DNA of 64,000 nucleotides. It comes from a virus. Under the pieces are notes generated by a model, which saw only the letters and a program-made list of their open reading frames with translations, searched no databases and was not told the origin of the DNA. Location: IMG/VR virus record IMGVR_UViG_3300029171_000001; one strand, 5' to 3'. Shown here one piece after another: positions 1 through 36,435 of this stretch; within the stretch, counting starts at the first letter, position 1; each line of letters starts with the position of its first letter. The translations under genes were made by a program, and so were the position numbers.

Positions 1-197
1 ACCATTTTACCCTCTGACATTTTTAATAAATTCAGTTCTCTATTGGGGTTTTTCAAACACCACGCTATATGATTTCCAAATTGTTGGTGTTTTTCATATT
101 GTATCAATTCTTTGCAATGTTTACACTCTTTTTTCATGTTTTTATTTATAAATATAGTGAAAAACTGAAATTGAAGTGTGTTTATTAATATTTTTTG

Positions 198-270
<73 letters not shown>

Positions 271-374
271 ATGGAGCAACCTCAGATAACACATCGAATT
301 TATGTATACTTCATTCAACTCAACTACGAGTTACTGACCGTAGTTTTGGAGTTATCCTCTGGTTGCATTTTTTG

Positions 375-459
375 AGCAGTGAATGGGGCTCGAACCCACG
401 ACATCCGCCTTGGCAAGGCGGTACTCTACGACTTTTGTCTCCAACTGAGCTATCACTGC
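375..459 (-). tRNA. tRNA-Gly(GCC) with D-loop hairpin insert
   Basis: Full cloverleaf, loop TTGCCAA, U73; D-loop carries GAC-AAAA-GTC. Confidence 0.85.
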
Positions 460-466
460 ATATTTG

Positions 467-540
467 AGCAAGTAACGGGGATCGAACCCGCTCTGTTCCA
501 GTTTGGAAGGCTAGCGCACCACCACTTATGCGTCACTTGC
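467..540 (-). tRNA. tRNA-Gly(TCC)
   Basis: GCAAGTG/TACTTGC acceptor, loop CTTCCAA, U73. Confidence 0.88.
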
Positions 541-593
541 ATGGAGAGGGACAGGTTATTTATACCTTTAAAGGACTCCCTCAGACCTTTTTG

Positions 594-666
594 AGCGGAA
601 GACGAGTCTCGAACTCGCCACCCCCTGCTTGGAAGGCAGGCGCTCTACCAAATGAGCTACTTCCGC
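594..666 (-). tRNA. tRNA-Gly(TCC)
   Basis: Canonical cloverleaf, CCTGC-CTTCCAA-GCAGG. Confidence 0.95.
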
Positions 667-765
667 TGGTTCGGGTCGTTTACCTTATCGGAAAGGTAAA
701 TATGAATTGAATTCACTACAAATCACCTTACATGGCTACATGCTTAACACTGACCCTTCTGTTTG

Positions 766-853
766 AGCACCAGATCGGACTCGAACCGATAACCTTTTGA
801 TTGGAAGTCAAACGCTCTAAGACTTTCGTCAAACCATTAGGAGCTACTGATGC
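766..853 (-). tRNA. tRNA-Gly(TCC) with D-loop GAAA hairpin
   Basis: GCATCAG/CTGGTGC acceptor, TTTGA-CTTCCAA-TCAAA, D-loop GAC-GAAA-GTC. Confidence 0.85.
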
Positions 854-1016
854 AGTTTAACCGATTTTTCTTTAATTTTCAGAGGGCGGCAATCGGTTTA
901 GCCTTTCTGCTACTCTTAAATAATTGGTATGGGTATTACATTTCTGCAAAACTACAAACCCATCTTTACAGCGATACACATCTACCCGTAGTTAGGTCAC
1001 AGATATGGCGCAGTAG

Positions 1017-1135
1017 TGGGGAGAGCTAGACTCGAACTAACATAGCCATTTAAGGCAGCGTGGTTACGACCACACAATGCTTACCGTACCGAGCTTCGAT
1101 GATCAGTCGAAAAGCGTGTACATTGCCATCTCCCC
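1017..1135 (-). ncRNA. 119-nt tRNA-Tyr-like RNA with large D-loop insert and 6-nt anticodon loop
   Basis: GGGGAGA/TCTCCCC+A73, T-arm GTTAG-TTCGAGT-CTAGC, GCC/GGC extra arm, loop TCGTAA. Confidence 0.6.
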
Positions 1136-1163
1136 AAATATTTTTTTTGATTTTTTTAGACGT

Positions 1164-1625
1164 TTATTCGTCTTTTTTGCTGTTGGCGTATTTTACACCC
1201 ATGATAGTTCCAATGATACTAAAACTATTTGTAAGAAGTATGCTAAACATATTACTCCATGTTGATTCTATGATTTTTACCTCATAACCTTTTACAAGAG
1301 CCAGAACATATAATCCTGTTGTAATTATTCCAACACCAAGTATAATCCCAAGAGCAACTTTTACAATTTGACCAACTAATTGATTTTGAGTTTTCTTTTG
1401 TAAAACCTCTAATTCGTGAAGTGCATCTTCTTTTTCTTGAGCATTTTTTTGACTTTGTTCAAGATGCCACTTGTTTATTCTACCAACACTTGTACCCAAC
1501 TCACGAGCCACAGAAAATTGGTTTTCAAATTCTTTTCCATTTATTTTACCAGTTCTCAAATATTCCTCATAAAGCTTTATCTTTTCTGGGGTAAATTCTG
1601 AATTTGTCATTTCTTCTTTTGCCAT
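1164..1625 (-). CDS. hypothetical membrane protein
   Basis: 153-aa ORF, two hydrophobic C-terminal segments. Confidence 0.7.
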   Translation of the reverse strand: MAKEEMTNSEFTPEKIKLYEEYLRTGKINGKEFENQFSVARELGTSVGRINKWHLEQSQKNAQEKEDALHELEVLQKKTQNQLVGQIVKVALGIILGVGIITTGLYVLALVKGYEVKIIESTWSNMFSILLTNSFSIIGTIMGVKYANSKKDE

Positions 1626-1696
1626 TGCTTGTGTTTTTTATCAATAATAAATATTTGATAAATTATTCGGGCACTGGTGTTTTGAAAAATTTTTTG

Positions 1697-1772
1697 TGGA
1701 GACGATGAGAATTGAACTCACCTCACGCTGATTGCAAATCAGCATCGCCTAGCCATTGGTACATGCGCCCCC
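1697..1772 (-). tRNA. tRNA-Ala(TGC)
   Basis: GCTGA-TTTGCAA-TCAGC, G3:U70, A73. Confidence 0.92.
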
Positions 1773-1833
1773 AATTAATTTCAAGGCCCCCGCAGTGATG
1801 AGCTGCAAGTTTGGTTATCATCCGACCTTATCG

Positions 1834-1919
1834 TGGAGACGACGGGACTCGAACCCGCATTAGAACTTTCGTCCGTCCTGATTGCAAATCAGGTGCCTAG
1901 CCAATTAGACTACATCCCC
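1834..1919 (-). tRNA. tRNA-Ala(TGC) with extra (variable) arm
   Basis: G3:U70, CCTGA-TTTGCAA-TCAGG, variable region GGAC-GAAA-GTTC. Confidence 0.88.
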
Positions 1920-1924
1920 ATTTG

Positions 1925-1998
1925 TGGAGGTAAACGGATTCGAACCGATGACCCCCTGCTTGCAAAGCAGGTGCTCTAGCCAGCTGAGCTATACCCCC
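1925..1998 (-). tRNA. tRNA-Ala(TGC)
   Basis: Canonical, CCTGC-TTTGCAA-GCAGG, G3:U70. Confidence 0.96.
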
Positions 1999-2119
1999 AA
2001 TTTAAAAATGTGGCCTGGCATTGTGAGGTTTAACCATTGTATGTCTCTTGCATCAATAGCCAAGTTCACCAATTTTGTCACCGTAAAGAGAATGAATAGG
2101 TAACTACCACATTTATTTT

Positions 2120-2524
2120 TTATTTCCACATTCCACCTGAATGTAATTTTTCAATTTCTTTTTCAAGTTTCTTTTGTTTTTTTCTTTGAATAAAGTCATC
2201 AAACTCTTTCATTAAAGGTTCTGGAATTTCAATTCCTTTATCTGAAAACTCTTTTAAAATTTCTTCCTTTGTAAAACTATGTTCAACAATTCCATCTGTC
2301 CACTGATCTCTCCAAAGCCCCCAACCTTTTTTACCAATCAAAACTGACTTCATAATGTTTGGGTGTTTTGTATAAATCTTCTTACCTCCACCATATTGTC
2401 CATTTTCAAACTTTCTGAAACAATTTTTAACCTCTGGACCATTTATATCAAAATAGACTTCTATCGGTGTTCCACAAAACGTTATCAATCCTTTTCGATT
2501 AATGTCGAAGAAAAATTTAAACAT
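2120..2524 (-). CDS. hypothetical protein (true start may be near 2658 via a 1-nt indel)
   Basis: 134-aa ORF; frame stays open upstream to 2677 without an ATG. Confidence 0.7.
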   Translation of the reverse strand: MFKFFFDINRKGLITFCGTPIEVYFDINGPEVKNCFRKFENGQYGGGKKIYTKHPNIMKSVLIGKKGWGLWRDQWTDGIVEHSFTKEEILKEFSDKGIEIPEPLMKEFDDFIQRKKQKKLEKEIEKLHSGGMWK

Positions 2525-2688
2525 CTTATTGAAACTATCAGAATATTTCTGAAGCTTCCTATCTAACTGTGTTCCAATTTCTTTTTTTCTTTGCTCAATT
2601 CTTTTGAGTCTTTCATTGGTTAGCTTCTCGCTCCCCAGCGCTCTTTCTCGCCTTTCATAATTTTTATTTTTAAGTGGTTAATAATTTG

Positions 2689-2803
2689 TCACCAAGAGAG
2701 GACTTGAACCTCTGATCATACGGAATTTTCCGTTACATCCACACGATTTCTTTTTTCTCTCTGGTTACGTTTACCAAATACACTTCAAAGATCTAACTTG
2801 GTG
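2689..2803 (-). ncRNA. tRNA-like RNA (acceptor and T-arm only, irregular middle)
   Basis: CACCAAG/CTTGGTG+A, AGAGG-TTCAAGT-CCTCT; no 7-nt anticodon arm. Confidence 0.5.
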
Positions 2804-2808
2804 TTTTG

Positions 2809-2884
2809 TAGAGTAGACGGGACTCGAACCCGCATTAATCTCCTCATCCCAAATGAGGCGAGACACCAATTCCTCTACTACTCT
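2809..2884 (-). tRNA. tRNA-Pro(TGG)
   Basis: CCTCA-TTTGGGA-TGAGG, T-loop TTCGAGT, A1:U72. Confidence 0.88.
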
Positions 2885-2926
2885 ATATTCTAGGTTTGGT
2901 AATTGACAGACCTAGAAAACTGCACG

Positions 2927-3011
2927 TGGTTGGGGTGATCGGATTCGAACCGACTCAGCCTAAGCAACGGTTTTACAGACCGTCCTAACTCTCCAGCGTT
3001 AGCGCACCCCA
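2927..3011 (-). tRNA. tRNA-Tyr(GTA), CCA encoded
   Basis: ACGGT-CTGTAAA-ACCGT, variable arm, ends ACCA. Confidence 0.9.
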
Positions 3012-3014
3012 ATA

Positions 3015-3092
3015 TGGTGGGATAGAAGGGACTTGAACCCTATGCGGTTGAGTTTTACAGACCCTCCGACTCTATTTCCTTGGCGTTATCCC
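3015..3092 (-). tRNA. tRNA-Tyr(GTA), degenerate
   Basis: Loop CTGTAAA, T-loop TTCAAGT, ACCA end; mismatches in several stems. Confidence 0.6.
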
Positions 3093-3225
3093 AGTTACAA
3101 TTTTTTAATGGATTGTGAACCATTTTTTGTTTAGGAGTAGGTATTAATCTTTACAGACAAGTTACCTTCCCGTGTACTTTAGGTAGTCTTAATTACATCA
3201 CTTCGTAATCTCGACAACTCCCAAG

Positions 3226-3301
3226 CGGTCCTAGAGGGAGTCGAACCCTCGTTCTGCCCAGATAGACAGTCTGGTTCCCATCCCAGTGGGCTCATAGGAC
3301 C
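3226..3301 (-). tRNA. tRNA-Asp(GTC)
   Basis: CCAGA-CTGTCTA-TCTGG, G73. Confidence 0.9.
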
Positions 3302-3327
3302 ATTTGAGTTTTACGTTCTCCAACGAG

Positions 3328-3403
3328 CGGGCTATACGGGATTTGAACCCGTGATCTCTACCGTGACAGGGTAGCAGGGACGGCCAGACTCCCCTAATAG
3401 CCC
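3328..3403 (-). tRNA. tRNA-Asp(GTC)
   Basis: CTACC-CTGTCAC-GGTAG, G73. Confidence 0.95.
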
Positions 3404-3436
3404 AATTTGATTTTTGTCTAGGTTTTCTCCTAGTTG

Positions 3437-3521
3437 CGGGAGTGAAGGGACTCGAACCCTCGACCTCTGCCGTGACAGGGCAGCATTCTAGGCTTGCGCC
3501 AACCAACTGAACTACACCCCC
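3437..3521 (-). tRNA. tRNA-Asp(GTC) with D-loop GCAA hairpin
   Basis: CTGCC-CTGTCAC-GGCAG; D-loop GGC-GCAA-GCC. Confidence 0.88.
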
Positions 3522-3534
3522 ATTTTTATTCTTG

Positions 3535-3603
3535 TCATCAAGACTGGATTTCCACCAGTAACCTCCCTGTGCACGGGGCTCTAAAAATTATAGCTACTTG
3601 ATG
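3535..3603 (-). ncRNA. 69-nt tRNA-like RNA with shortened anticodon arm
   Basis: CATCAAG/CTTGATG+A, D-arm, CCC-GTGCACA-GGG, T-arm ACTGG-TGGAAAT-CCAGT. Confidence 0.55.
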
Positions 3604-3607
3604 AAGT

Positions 3608-3690
3608 ATGATGGTAATTGTGAAGCTATGTTTTTCGATTGGAAGTCAAATGCCCTAACGGGCTAGAAGTAAGCAAACACATGGCCATCA
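3608..3690 (-). pseudogene. degenerate tRNA-Gly(TCC)-like remnant
   Basis: TTTGA-CTTCCAA-TCGAA arm and TGATGG/CCATCA ends, no T-arm. Confidence 0.35.
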
Positions 3691-3696
3691 ATAAGT

Positions 3697-3775
3697 ACAC
3701 TGCAGTGGGATTTTCACCCTCGGTTACATCTCATTCCTAACATGGAATGTATCTTAAAAGTTAGACGACACAGCG
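3697..3775 (-). ncRNA. degenerate tRNA-like RNA
   Basis: Wobble-rich acceptor, D-stem GTCT/AGAT, CATTCC/GGAATG arm with even-sized loop, T-loop TGAAAAT. Confidence 0.4.
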
Positions 3776-3854
3776 ATTTAATTTCCTACGGGGTTGAAAC
3801 TTACGTATGAAGAGCGACTTCACAGAGATAAATAACAACTCACCCGTTTATGTG

Positions 3855-3949
3855 TCAGGAGTGAGGGAGTCGAACCCTCGGCAAGCAACAACTGAGTGCT
3901 CGCACTGGTTTCCAAGACCAGCCGTTTAGACCAACTCACGCAACTCCTG
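3855..3949 (-). tRNA. tRNA-Pro(TGG) with 8-bp extra arm (95 nt)
   Basis: CAGGAGT/ACTCCTG+A73, CTGGT-CTTGGAA-ACCAG, GCGAGCAC/GTGCTTGC arm. Confidence 0.85.
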
Positions 3950-3993
3950 ATATGAAGTTTTTGATTTAAAAACAAAAACAACAAAACAAATCG

Positions 3994-4066
3994 TCAGGGT
4001 GACAGGGGTTGAACCTGCGACCTCCTGGTCCCAAACCAGGCGCTCTCCCAACTGAGCTACACCCTG
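3994..4066 (-). tRNA. tRNA-Pro(TGG)
   Basis: Canonical, CCTGG-TTTGGGA-CCAGG, C1:G72, A73. Confidence 0.95.
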
Positions 4067-4153
4067 AAGTGCTGTGGGTTTTGGAGTACCCACAGCTAAA
4101 TTTCCCAATATGTCAAAGATCTCATGTTATTTTTTACCTGAAATAACCAAAAC

Positions 4154-27550: not shown

Positions 27551-27811
27551 TTATTGATAATTTTTGCGATAAATGCAGACATATTTTACATCATTTTTTA
27601 AATGATCAAAAAAATACTTTTCACATTGTTTAAATGTACCAATTTTCACTAATTCATCAGAAAACATCTCATAATATAAACCATATTTCCCATCTTCTCT
27701 TAAACGAATATAGGCATATCCAGAACCATTACTGTCCTTATTTTTTTTAAAACAATAACTAACCTCATTTAAGATTATACTTTCTTCAATTACAATATCT
27801 TTCTTTTTCAT
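27551..27811 (-). CDS. hypothetical protein
   Basis: 86-aa ORF abutting trpS. Confidence 0.65.
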   Translation of the reverse strand: MKKKDIVIEESIILNEVSYCFKKNKDSNGSGYAYIRLREDGKYGLYYEMFSDELVKIGTFKQCEKYFFDHLKNDVKYVCIYRKNYQ

Positions 27812-28551
27812 TAATTTTTATTACCAAACAACTCCACCATTCTACGAGCAATTGCCTCTTTAAGTTGCAAATTTAATGAAAATTCTTGAATATCCAAACC
27901 CAACTCCCTGGCAATCATCTGTATATTTTTCAAACCTTCTTCATTCATGTTTGCTTTTTTTATCTTTCCCATATAATCTTCATCAAAAAGATATAACACA
28001 TGTTTTTCACCATCTGATTTTGACATTTTCTTCGTAGGGTCAATCAACGACATTACCTTATCCACATGTCCAAACTCATATGTATAATCATCTCTACCAC
28101 CAACACGCTTACAAATATCGTTTGCAAGCTCTATATGAGCAACCTGGTCCCTGCCAACAATAATTATGTCTGGATCATTCATCATAATATCAGCTGCCAT
28201 TAAAACTGGGTATAAAAGCAAACCCATGTCGTACTCAACCTTGTCTTTTTTATCTTTATACTGAGGCATCTTTAACAGTGTAGCAATATTTACCTTGCAG
28301 CAAAGTTTGAAAAAAAGTTCTGTATACAAAGGTGTTTGGTGCACAATTTTTTTGCACCCCAAACGAATAAGCTCTTGTTCGGTTTTATCTGAATAACTAT
28401 CGGTTGTCAAAGAATGATAATTGGCAATCAAAAAAGTAACATCATGACCTTGTTCTTGTAACTCAAGACCTTTTTTAAGACAACCTAGATAGTTACCTAT
28501 GTGAAGTTTGTTAGTCGGTTGAATGCCGATTAATATTTTTTTTGTTTTCAT
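27811..28551 (-). CDS. trpS: tryptophanyl-tRNA synthetase, compact (246 aa)
   Basis: GIQPT..LHIGNY, YPVLMAADI, VG.DQ..H.EL, KKMSKS; start re-set to MKTKK because the ORF-track extension lies in a tRNA. Confidence 0.93.
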   Translation of the reverse strand: MKTKKILIGIQPTNKLHIGNYLGCLKKGLELQEQGHDVTFLIANYHSLTTDSYSDKTEQELIRLGCKKIVHQTPLYTELFFKLCCKVNIATLLKMPQYKDKKDKVEYDMGLLLYPVLMAADIMMNDPDIIIVGRDQVAHIELANDICKRVGGRDDYTYEFGHVDKVMSLIDPTKKMSKSDGEKHVLYLFDEDYMGKIKKANMNEEGLKNIQMIARELGLDIQEFSLNLQLKEAIARRMVELFGNKN

Positions 28552-28553
28552 CG

Positions 28554-28638
28554 CACGTCGAAGAGGATTCGAACCCCTGTGAGACCTAAGTCTGCTGGTT
28601 TTGGAGACCAGTGCTATCAACCACTCTGCCATCGACGT
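28554..28638 (-). tRNA. tRNA-Trp(CCA) with long variable arm
   Basis: CTGGT-CTCCAAA-ACCAG, A1:U72, G73, AGAC-TTAG-GTCT arm; ends 2 nt before the trpS ATG. Confidence 0.88.
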
Positions 28639-28716
28639 ATATAGATGTTTAAAATTACGGATTAGAATTTTTAAAGCCTCGGTCTTGTCGCCGCTTCCTT
28701 AATCTATCACATCTTG

Positions 28717-28789
28717 CACGAGAGACAGGAATCGAACCTGCAACCTTCGGTTTTGGAGACCGCCACTCTACCAGTTGAGCTACTCTCGT
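28717..28789 (-). tRNA. tRNA-Trp(CCA)
   Basis: Canonical, loop CTCCAAA, A1:U72, G73. Confidence 0.93.
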
Positions 28790-35735: not shown

Positions 35736-35761
35736 CTTTTCAAAAATTCAAAGAACAAATG

Positions 35762-35833
35762 AGCGCCCTGACACAATCGAAGTGCCGCATGCAGACATTG
35801 CGTGTCTGTGCCTTTCCCCTTGGCTAAGGGCGC
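35762..35833 (-). tRNA. tRNA-Cys(GCA)-like with A32/C33/U38
   Basis: GCGCCCT/AGGGCGC, U73, CAGAC-ACGCAAT-GTCTG. Confidence 0.7.
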
Positions 35834-36282: not shown

Positions 36283-36354
36283 AGATCCATGTCGGGTTCG
36301 AACCGACGACCTTGGCTTTTAGAGGGCCTTGCTCTGCCGCTGAGCTAATGGATC
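36283..36354 (-). tRNA. amber suppressor tRNA (CTA anticodon)
   Basis: GATCCAT/ATGGATC, U73, GCTC/GAGC D-stem, loop CTCTAAA, 3-bp anticodon stem plus mismatches. Confidence 0.8.
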
Positions 36355-36360
36355 ATTTTG

Positions 36361-36435
36361 AGCAGGAGGATGGAATCGAACCACCGTCCTCTGATATTGC
36401 GTATCAGCGCTTGCAGCCAACTCAGCTACTCCTGC
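36361..36435 (-). tRNA. second tRNA-Cys(GCA)-like with A32/C33/U38
   Basis: GCAGGAG/CTCCTGC, U73, CTGAT-ACGCAAT-ATCAG. Confidence 0.7.

Follow-up and report, generated by a model that had tools for sequence, protein, structure and literature searches.

Hairpin-bearing D-loops in tRNAs of large phages: a conserved extra arm with a possible role in evading host tRNA nucleases

Three transfer RNA (tRNA) genes near the start of a 64,000-nucleotide stretch of viral DNA (IMG/VR record IMGVR_UViG_3300029171_000001, called the window below) carry a small hairpin inside the D-loop of an otherwise intact tRNA. Judged by comparison with related sequences, this hairpin is real and has been kept by selection. 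The hairpin-bearing genes may encode five-armed, working phage tRNAs that evade host tRNA nucleases, which is the favored but still tentative reading of their purpose.

The three genes lie on the minus strand, and each gave a full cloverleaf parse, confirming the first-pass annotation of the window. The tRNA-Gly(GCC) gene (375..459) contains the hairpin GAC-AAAA-GTC (430..439), tRNA-Gly(UCC) (766..853) contains GAC-GAAA-GTC (821..830), and tRNA-Asp(GUC) (3437..3521) contains GGC-GCAA-GCC (3491..3500). The insert of 12–15 nt is located between G19 and A21, and its 3-bp stem starts 1, 3 and 2 nt past G19 in Gly(GCC), Gly(UCC) and Asp, respectively, i.e., just after the D-loop GG, as had been noted at first. 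The D-loops measure 20, 23 and 20 nt, as compared to 8 nt in the plain paralogues. The variable loop is 5 nt long in all three, short of the variable-region stem-loop of at least 10 nt that marks class II tRNAs. Bases typical of the isotypes were kept: G1-C72, C2-G71 and U73 in Gly(GCC), U73 in Gly(UCC), which has C in place of A14, and G73, C38 and G10-U25 in Asp. Two details of the earlier description had to be narrowed. First, the loops had all been called GNRA-type; this applies to GAAA in Gly(UCC) and GCAA in Asp, but not to AAAA in Gly(GCC), which is a local change, as the orthologue in a syntenic relative (one contig, held as both L414 and L445) has GAAA. Second, canonical isoacceptors were said to stand beside each hairpin gene. 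This is correct for Gly, with plain Gly(GCC) at 198..270 and Gly(UCC) at 594..666 (both minus strand, 8-nt D-loops), but not for Asp, whose neighbors at 3328..3403 (minus strand, tRNA-Asp(GUC) without hairpin and with a variant D-stem) and 3226-3301 are variants themselves.

Formation of the hairpin lowered the calculated cloverleaf energy by 2.3, 2.5 and 4.2 kcal/mol in Gly(GCC), Gly(UCC) and Asp, with hairpin pair probabilities of about 0.75, 0.38 and 0.69. Shuffled inserts folded equally well in 1.9%, 4.0% and 1.9% of trials. The minimum free energy fold of the Gly(GCC) gene is the cloverleaf with the hairpin. Since the two Gly hairpins have identical stem sequences, they may not be independent. 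ARAGORN miscalled two of the three genes (as Gly-ACC and Ser-AGA) and missed the third, which may explain why the form has so far gone unremarked, and the Rfam alignment left the inserts as unaligned stretches. Because standard annotators miscall or miss such genes, phage tRNA inventories are wrong where hairpin genes occur.

Conservation was followed in syntenic relatives of the tRNA cluster. The L414/L445 contig contains both Gly hairpin genes. Its Gly(UCC) gene has an insert identical to that of the window, while the body differs at 8 of 72 positions, including two compensatory pairs in the anticodon stem; in its Gly(GCC) gene the insert differs only by GAAA for AAAA, and two acceptor pairs are exchanged. 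All three hairpin genes are present in L390, in the same order as in the window and with GGC-GCAA-GCT in Asp, and the Asp gene of L035 has the window's hairpin between different linkers. The bodies of the Gly(GCC) and Asp orthologues show 2–4 two-sided compensatory pair differences, and the hairpin persists. The Gly(UCC) slot is occupied by hairpin-bearing Gly(UCC) genes on three unlike bodies (window/L445, L390 and L442), and in L035, which shares the upstream flank with L390, by a Gly(UCC) gene with a long variable arm instead. Extra bulk is thus retained in this slot while its sequence, and even its point of attachment, change. The long-armed gene (L035:7248-7336, plus strand) has GC rather than GG in the D-loop and G at position 56 of the T-loop, as if the G19-C56 elbow pair had been swapped. 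Logan contig L444 contains an identical copy of the cluster, which was not counted as independent support.

Within the fetched stretches of the more distant relatives L443 and L448-L451, no hairpin gene was found. Genes of the cluster thus turn over quickly, but a gene that was kept has kept its arm as well. An HNH-domain gene is located directly downstream of the Gly tRNAs on L444 (L444:4319-4984, plus strand), just beyond the window start, and could drive this fast turnover. The turnover of whole genes, together with the natural length variation at position 20, would suit a view in which the inserts are tolerated, nearly neutral expansions or a tiny mobile repeat in redundant tRNA copies, and in which only folded inserts survive because they leave the core undisturbed. 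This is improbable, since the inserts are at least as conserved as the tRNA bodies and a hairpin persists in one slot on three different bodies. In addition, the inserts have no flanking duplication, counts of the motif in the 64-kb window stayed within the range of shuffled sequences with no scatter beyond chance, and the form is almost absent from cellular genomes. The first-pass annotation had proposed a selected appendage on the grounds of a common position, a covarying stem and different bodies, to be doubted if the inserts proved not to be conserved and the tRNAs non-functional. This refutation failed, and the proposal is supported by covariation, by the conservation of the inserts among orthologues and by the occurrence of the hairpin in at least eight isotypes.

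Covariation was assessed in an alignment of 26 members made from sequence only. The three hairpin pairs were formed in 83% of cells, with 14 two-sided changes; none of 500 shuffles scored as high and slid controls scored lower, in counts of a kind that relatedness inflates. For the whole structure in these 26 sequences, 97% of cells were paired, with 195 two-sided changes, and 21 of 24 pairs had such changes. Among the 38 distinct inserts from scans blind to insert content, a GNRA-capped hairpin was the best fold in 33, as compared to 0.87 ± 0.95 in shuffles (maximum of 6 in 500). The loops were GAAA, GCAA, GTAA, GGAA and GAGA, and a C-G pair closed the loop in 32 of 37.

This loop variation is the signature of GNRA tetraloops and raises the possibility of a docking handle, in which the loop would make an A-minor contact with an RNA helix of the ribosome, of another tRNA or of the tRNA itself, or would bind a phage protein, and so open a private route in translation, modification or packaging. 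The preference is also about twice as strong as in the class II-like variable arms of the same loci (87% of D-loop inserts versus 43%, or 98 of 230, variable-arm loops). Docking is the main rival of nuclease evasion but the less likely of the two. The position of the loop is not fixed, because stems of 2–5 bp and linkers of 0–5 nt occur, and loops outside the GNRA family are tolerated (AAAA in the window, TAAA in L442, UUCG, TTAC and ATTA). In C(GNRA)G, moreover, a short stem simply gains a very stable cap. A position-wise search for GNRA receptors gave lineage effects only, and no GlyRS, AspRS or shared partner gene was present among the 60 proteins scanned.

The spread of the form was determined by pattern scans, answering the earlier suggestion to look for the motif in other phage tRNAs. 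In IMG/VR, a scan blind to both anticodon and insert content returned 27 contigs, all 27 with the hairpin at this position in tRNA-Lys(UUU), although Lys(UUU) accounts for only 5 of 62 plain tRNAs that fit the anticodon-blind pattern. His, Gly, Asp and Phe were added by scanning viral and metagenome contigs for other anticodons, whereas Thr and Met came from flanks or later scans. The total is 51 distinct hairpin tRNAs in 62 loci, the latter including duplicates of one contig: 21 Lys-UUU, 13 His, 9 Gly, 3 Asp and 3 Phe, besides Thr and Met. Two viral scans that specified GNRA yielded mostly chance matches among the matches listed and three further loci, and were excluded from the GNRA statistic. 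With the tRNA-Cys(GCA) gene of GenBank LR745206.1 (L454:38656-38738, plus strand; hairpin GTT-GAAA-GAC), which is part of a published 634-kb phage genome without annotation, at least eight isotypes carry the D-loop hairpin. Several contigs have two or three hairpin isotypes. When nearest neighbors of the tRNA bodies were compared, all Gly members but one fell beside plain Gly tRNAs, and Lys, His and Asp were too noisy for counting origins.

Among 185,579 cellular genomes, 105 pattern matches that could be parsed were obtained, mostly assembly duplications, runs of N or archaeal introns, and phage-like hairpins were limited to L054, L081 and L091. Thus, the form is uncommon and occurs almost only in viruses. 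On cellular contigs, the clearest example is a tRNA-Thr(UGU) gene with GGGC-GAAA-GCCT in the D-loop, from an Acidimicrobiales metagenome-assembled genome (L054:912-1002, minus strand). A preprint on ACA reassignment in Acidimicrobiales was considered in this connection and set aside, as its 'long D-loop' has 10 nt and is unrelated. Four tRNA genes on an Acidithiobacillus ferrivorans contig (L112:1623-2314, plus strand) have a similar 17-nt D-loop insert in common, which looks like a mobile repeat or intron-like element distinct from the GNRA type. Whole-tRNA BLAST searches revealed no cultured phage with the insert, as all top matches were gapped; four insert queries of 34–35 nt gave no match, which for such short and weak queries does not imply absence. 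Searches of the open literature, with subscription papers outside coverage, turned up no account of tRNAs whose D-loop contains a hairpin. The Gly and Asp orthologue series, the swap of hairpin and long variable arm in one slot, the hairpin gene as sole copy in complete genomes and the negative outcome of the test for introns are new here.

Inserts of this size could in principle be mini-introns, removed by a splicing endonuclease and a ligase. Removal could restore a D-loop of normal size, and the archaeal tRNAs L043, L075 and L139 have D-loop introns of similar size at nearby positions. In a strict test for a bulge-helix-bulge (BHB) motif, only 4 of 52 phage-type inserts passed, as compared to 2.4 ± 1.4 in shuffles; of 8 archaeal-type controls, 7 did. 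In the window, a canonical product resulted from none of the three inserts. The strict version was used since an earlier one, which set no limit on G-U pairs, was not selective enough (21 of 52 versus 12.7). The inserts also lack a conserved junction, and the 60 scanned proteins, from a genome seen only in part, include no EndA or RtcB domain. Group I and II introns are excluded, as 12–15 nt is far below a ribozyme core of some hundred bases and Rfam returned no intron match. Splicing is therefore very improbable, and the insert is most probably retained in the mature RNA. Of five wastewater runs with small shares, four were compared; their contigs, probably DNA, showed no joint or gap removing the insert among the alignments listed; contigs cannot show maturation.

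Several features are consistent with a function in translation, which is probable. The discriminator base matches the isotype in 50 of 51 hairpin tRNAs, and all seven acceptor pairs form in 51 of 51, as compared to 91% of plain phage tRNAs. The core positions U8, A14, G18, G19, A21, U33, R37, U54-C56 and A58 and pair 15-48 are each kept in 48–51 of 51, several of them forced by the search pattern. Anticodon loops are ordinary, with CUUUUAA in 21 of 21 Lys members, and G1-C72, U73, C35 and C36 of the Gly members agree with the published identity set (PMC9976931). Arg was not found among the members, although plain tRNAs that fit the wider pattern are most often Arg (18 of 125; the numbers are small). 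Since A20 is the main Arg identity element (PMC9976931), this absence is expected if hairpin tRNAs have to be charged. In four records rated 100% complete and in two rated 90–95%, the hairpin gene is the sole Lys(UUU) match, as would be expected of a working tRNA rather than of a spare part; three other records have further Lys(UUU) matches.

The same observations bear on the idea that hairpin tRNAs are decoys, chargeable or not, which bind and stall host tRNA nucleases or sensors and have no part in translation. Clear non-decoding tRNA look-alikes do exist in the cluster (1016-1131 and 3527-3778), plain paralogues stand alongside the hairpin genes in 15 of 30 tRNA-rich loci, and competition by viral tRNAs has been raised as a possibility for the nuclease AriB (10.1101/2025.02.04.636281). 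Decoys would, however, hardly need the 7-base anticodon loops, U33, purine 37 and isotype-matched discriminators kept across eight isotypes, nor serve as the only Lys(UUU) gene of a complete genome, and this explanation is improbable.

Evasion of host nucleases by working tRNAs would proceed as follows. The hairpin, of 2–5 bp and usually C-G closed and GNRA-capped, sits where the D-loop varies in length (position 20/20a/20b) and would stay in the mature RNA. It spares G18 and G19, the T-loop, the acceptor end and also the anticodon arm, so that the tRNA could still be matured, charged according to its anticodon and used in decoding. The region around position 20 is variable in length, faces the solvent and lies near the point where the long variable arm of tRNA-Ser, -Leu and -Tyr leaves the core. 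There, the fifth arm could alter the surface by which host tRNA-targeting defense enzymes hold the tRNA at a distance from the cut site. In this way, a targeted tRNA would be kept by the phage in a nuclease-resistant form, either alone or among differently decorated paralogues. In the same loci, class I isotypes bear 58 distinct long variable arms, and the simplest common reading of both features is that phages add bulk near the tRNA core by two routes.

The first-pass annotation had also suggested that the arm blocks RNase P or T-box-type readers of the tRNA elbow. RNase P and T-box RNAs do contact the elbow next to the insert, reading G18, G19 and the T-loop, as does the L1 stalk. These bases are intact, and the insert at position 20 lies beside the platform rather than on it. 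The phage also needs 5' maturation of its own polycistronic tRNAs, which makes blocking of RNase P unlikely. T-boxes are mainly a feature of Firmicutes, and the nearest named relatives of the phage include Bacteroides phages. Elbow blocking is therefore barely credible.

Precedent for nuclease evasion comes from the PARIS system. AriB cuts tRNA-Lys(UUU), its prime target; its second subunit was modelled on the D-loop, U16C impairs cleavage, and T5 tRNAs counter AriB (10.1101/2025.02.04.636281). In the D-loop, 23 of 23 T5 tRNAs differ from their Escherichia coli counterparts (PMC12475279). Most of the hairpin family consists of Lys(UUU), which AriB targets; its members in the window are Gly and Asp. 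Several points weigh against nuclease evasion. To our knowledge, no nuclease targets tRNA-Gly or is blocked by a D-loop arm, and in the open literature no paper on a defense nuclease targeting Gly or Asp tRNAs was found. The modelled AriB contact, at 16-17, lies 5' of the insert, and most members retain U16. The bias towards GNRA is stronger than steric bulk requires. GYTY D-stems are favored by the search patterns, many of the members are relatives of one another, and pattern or parser imposed several of the 'invariant' bases. The minimum free energy fold of Gly(UCC) is not the cloverleaf, which is common for unmodified tRNAs, though. Finally, all sequences are from assembled contigs, probably DNA rather than RNA.

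In a broader and more doubtful form, large phages might repeatedly have evolved a third structural class of translating tRNA, i.e., a class I body with a GNRA-capped D-loop arm that is interchangeable with a grafted long variable arm and serves either as general shape-based armor against immunity that targets tRNA or as a handle in a translation step specific to the phage. If so, the isotypes Lys, His, Gly, Asp, Phe, Thr, Met and Cys would point to undiscovered host defenses directed at tRNA, particularly for Gly and His. If the arm protects against host nucleases, it would be a shape-based counter-defense, unlike the known point changes, and the isotype spectrum would predict targets of uncharacterized defenses. 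That a class I tRNA can bear a conserved extra helix at position 20 bears on the tolerance of ribosomes and synthetases and gives tRNA engineering a natural site to use.

The window belongs to a very large phage genome and encodes ribonucleotide reductase, DnaB, UvrD, a ClpB-type ATPase, a sigma factor, SSB, dUTPase and a Trp/Tyr-type tRNA synthetase. By ribonucleotide reductase, the nearest named relatives are the 634,780-bp phage LR745206.1, whose enzyme is 68.9% identical, and Bacteroides phages. The largest genomes of the LR745206.1 study were assigned to the Mahaphage clade, with Bacteroidetes as predicted hosts (PMC7162821), and the host of the window's phage is presumably bacterial. The minus-strand tRNA cluster extends over 190-4070, with several paralogues per anticodon, and most of its tRNA genes, plain ones included, lack an encoded CCA. 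Its tRNA-Ala(UGC) (1834..1919, minus strand) has a long variable arm with GAC-GAAA-GTT at 1864-1873, identical in L442 and L445; this is a sister kind of extra arm in the same cluster as the D-loop hairpins. Long class II-like variable arms were also found in tRNA-Pro(UGG) (3855-3949, minus strand) and, outside the cluster, in tRNA-Trp(CCA) (28554-28638, minus strand).

Further unusual RNAs and genes were observed on the minus strand. The tRNA-shaped RNA at 1016-1131, 97.6% identical in L442 and L445, has acceptor and T arms and a structured D-loop of about 45 nt, with a 4-nt loop replacing the anticodon loop. Three tandem tRNA-like genes (3527-3604, 3606-3692 and 3697-3778) have the T-loops TGGAAAT, TTCACAA and TGAAAAT and no clear D-loop GG; they are probably not decaying, since they are 87–100% conserved in L442. 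The synthetase gene (27811-28632) is located directly behind two tRNA-Trp genes (28554-28789), the longest open reading frame call overlapping the long-armed tRNA-Trp, and may form a private synthetase-tRNA pair with tRNA-Trp. A tRNA with a CUA (amber) anticodon is encoded at 36283-36354; none of 24 long open reading frames checked ends in TAG (22 TAA, 2 TGA), and recoding is not indicated because these frames are open under table 11. In the anticodon loop of both tRNA-Cys(GCA) genes (35761-35833 and 36361-36435), A32-C33 replaces Y32-U33.

Among known systems, tRNA-Sec, tRNA-Pyl and their relatives resemble the hairpin tRNAs in having an altered D-arm on a tRNA scaffold; in tRNA-Sec the D-stem is lengthened and the loop shortened, and the parts consulted of the review by Krahn, Fischer and Soll 2020 mention neither an internal D-loop hairpin nor phages (PMC7609411). 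Non-canonical D-loop introns of archaea, which are removed by EndA at a BHB, are likewise short intervening sequences in the D-loop that annotators often miss (10.64898/2026.10.13.758758), but the phage inserts show no BHB motif above chance and their host is bacterial by inference. The T5 tRNAs for Lys, Thr and Asn that counter PARIS AriB are phage copies of host-targeted isotypes changed in or near the D-loop, with the same proposed purpose (10.1101/2025.02.04.636281; PMC12475279). They carry point substitutions, whereas here a whole hairpin is added, the anticodon loop is canonical and resistance is only predicted. Class II tRNAs (Ser, Leu and Tyr) share the extra stem-loop off the core, which is often GNRA-capped and in class II is tolerated by the ribosome; the phage arm differs in emerging from the D-loop, in being much shorter, in its occurrence on class I isotypes and in having no known synthetase role. 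The closest likeness in the tRNA body is to canonical class I elongator tRNAs for Gly, Asp, Lys and His (RF00005), with the 7/5 acceptor-T domain, 4-bp D-stem, G18G19, 7-nt anticodon loop, short variable loop and isotype identity bases in common, from which the hairpin tRNAs depart by a D-loop of 17–23 nt with an internal hairpin in place of 7–12 nt.

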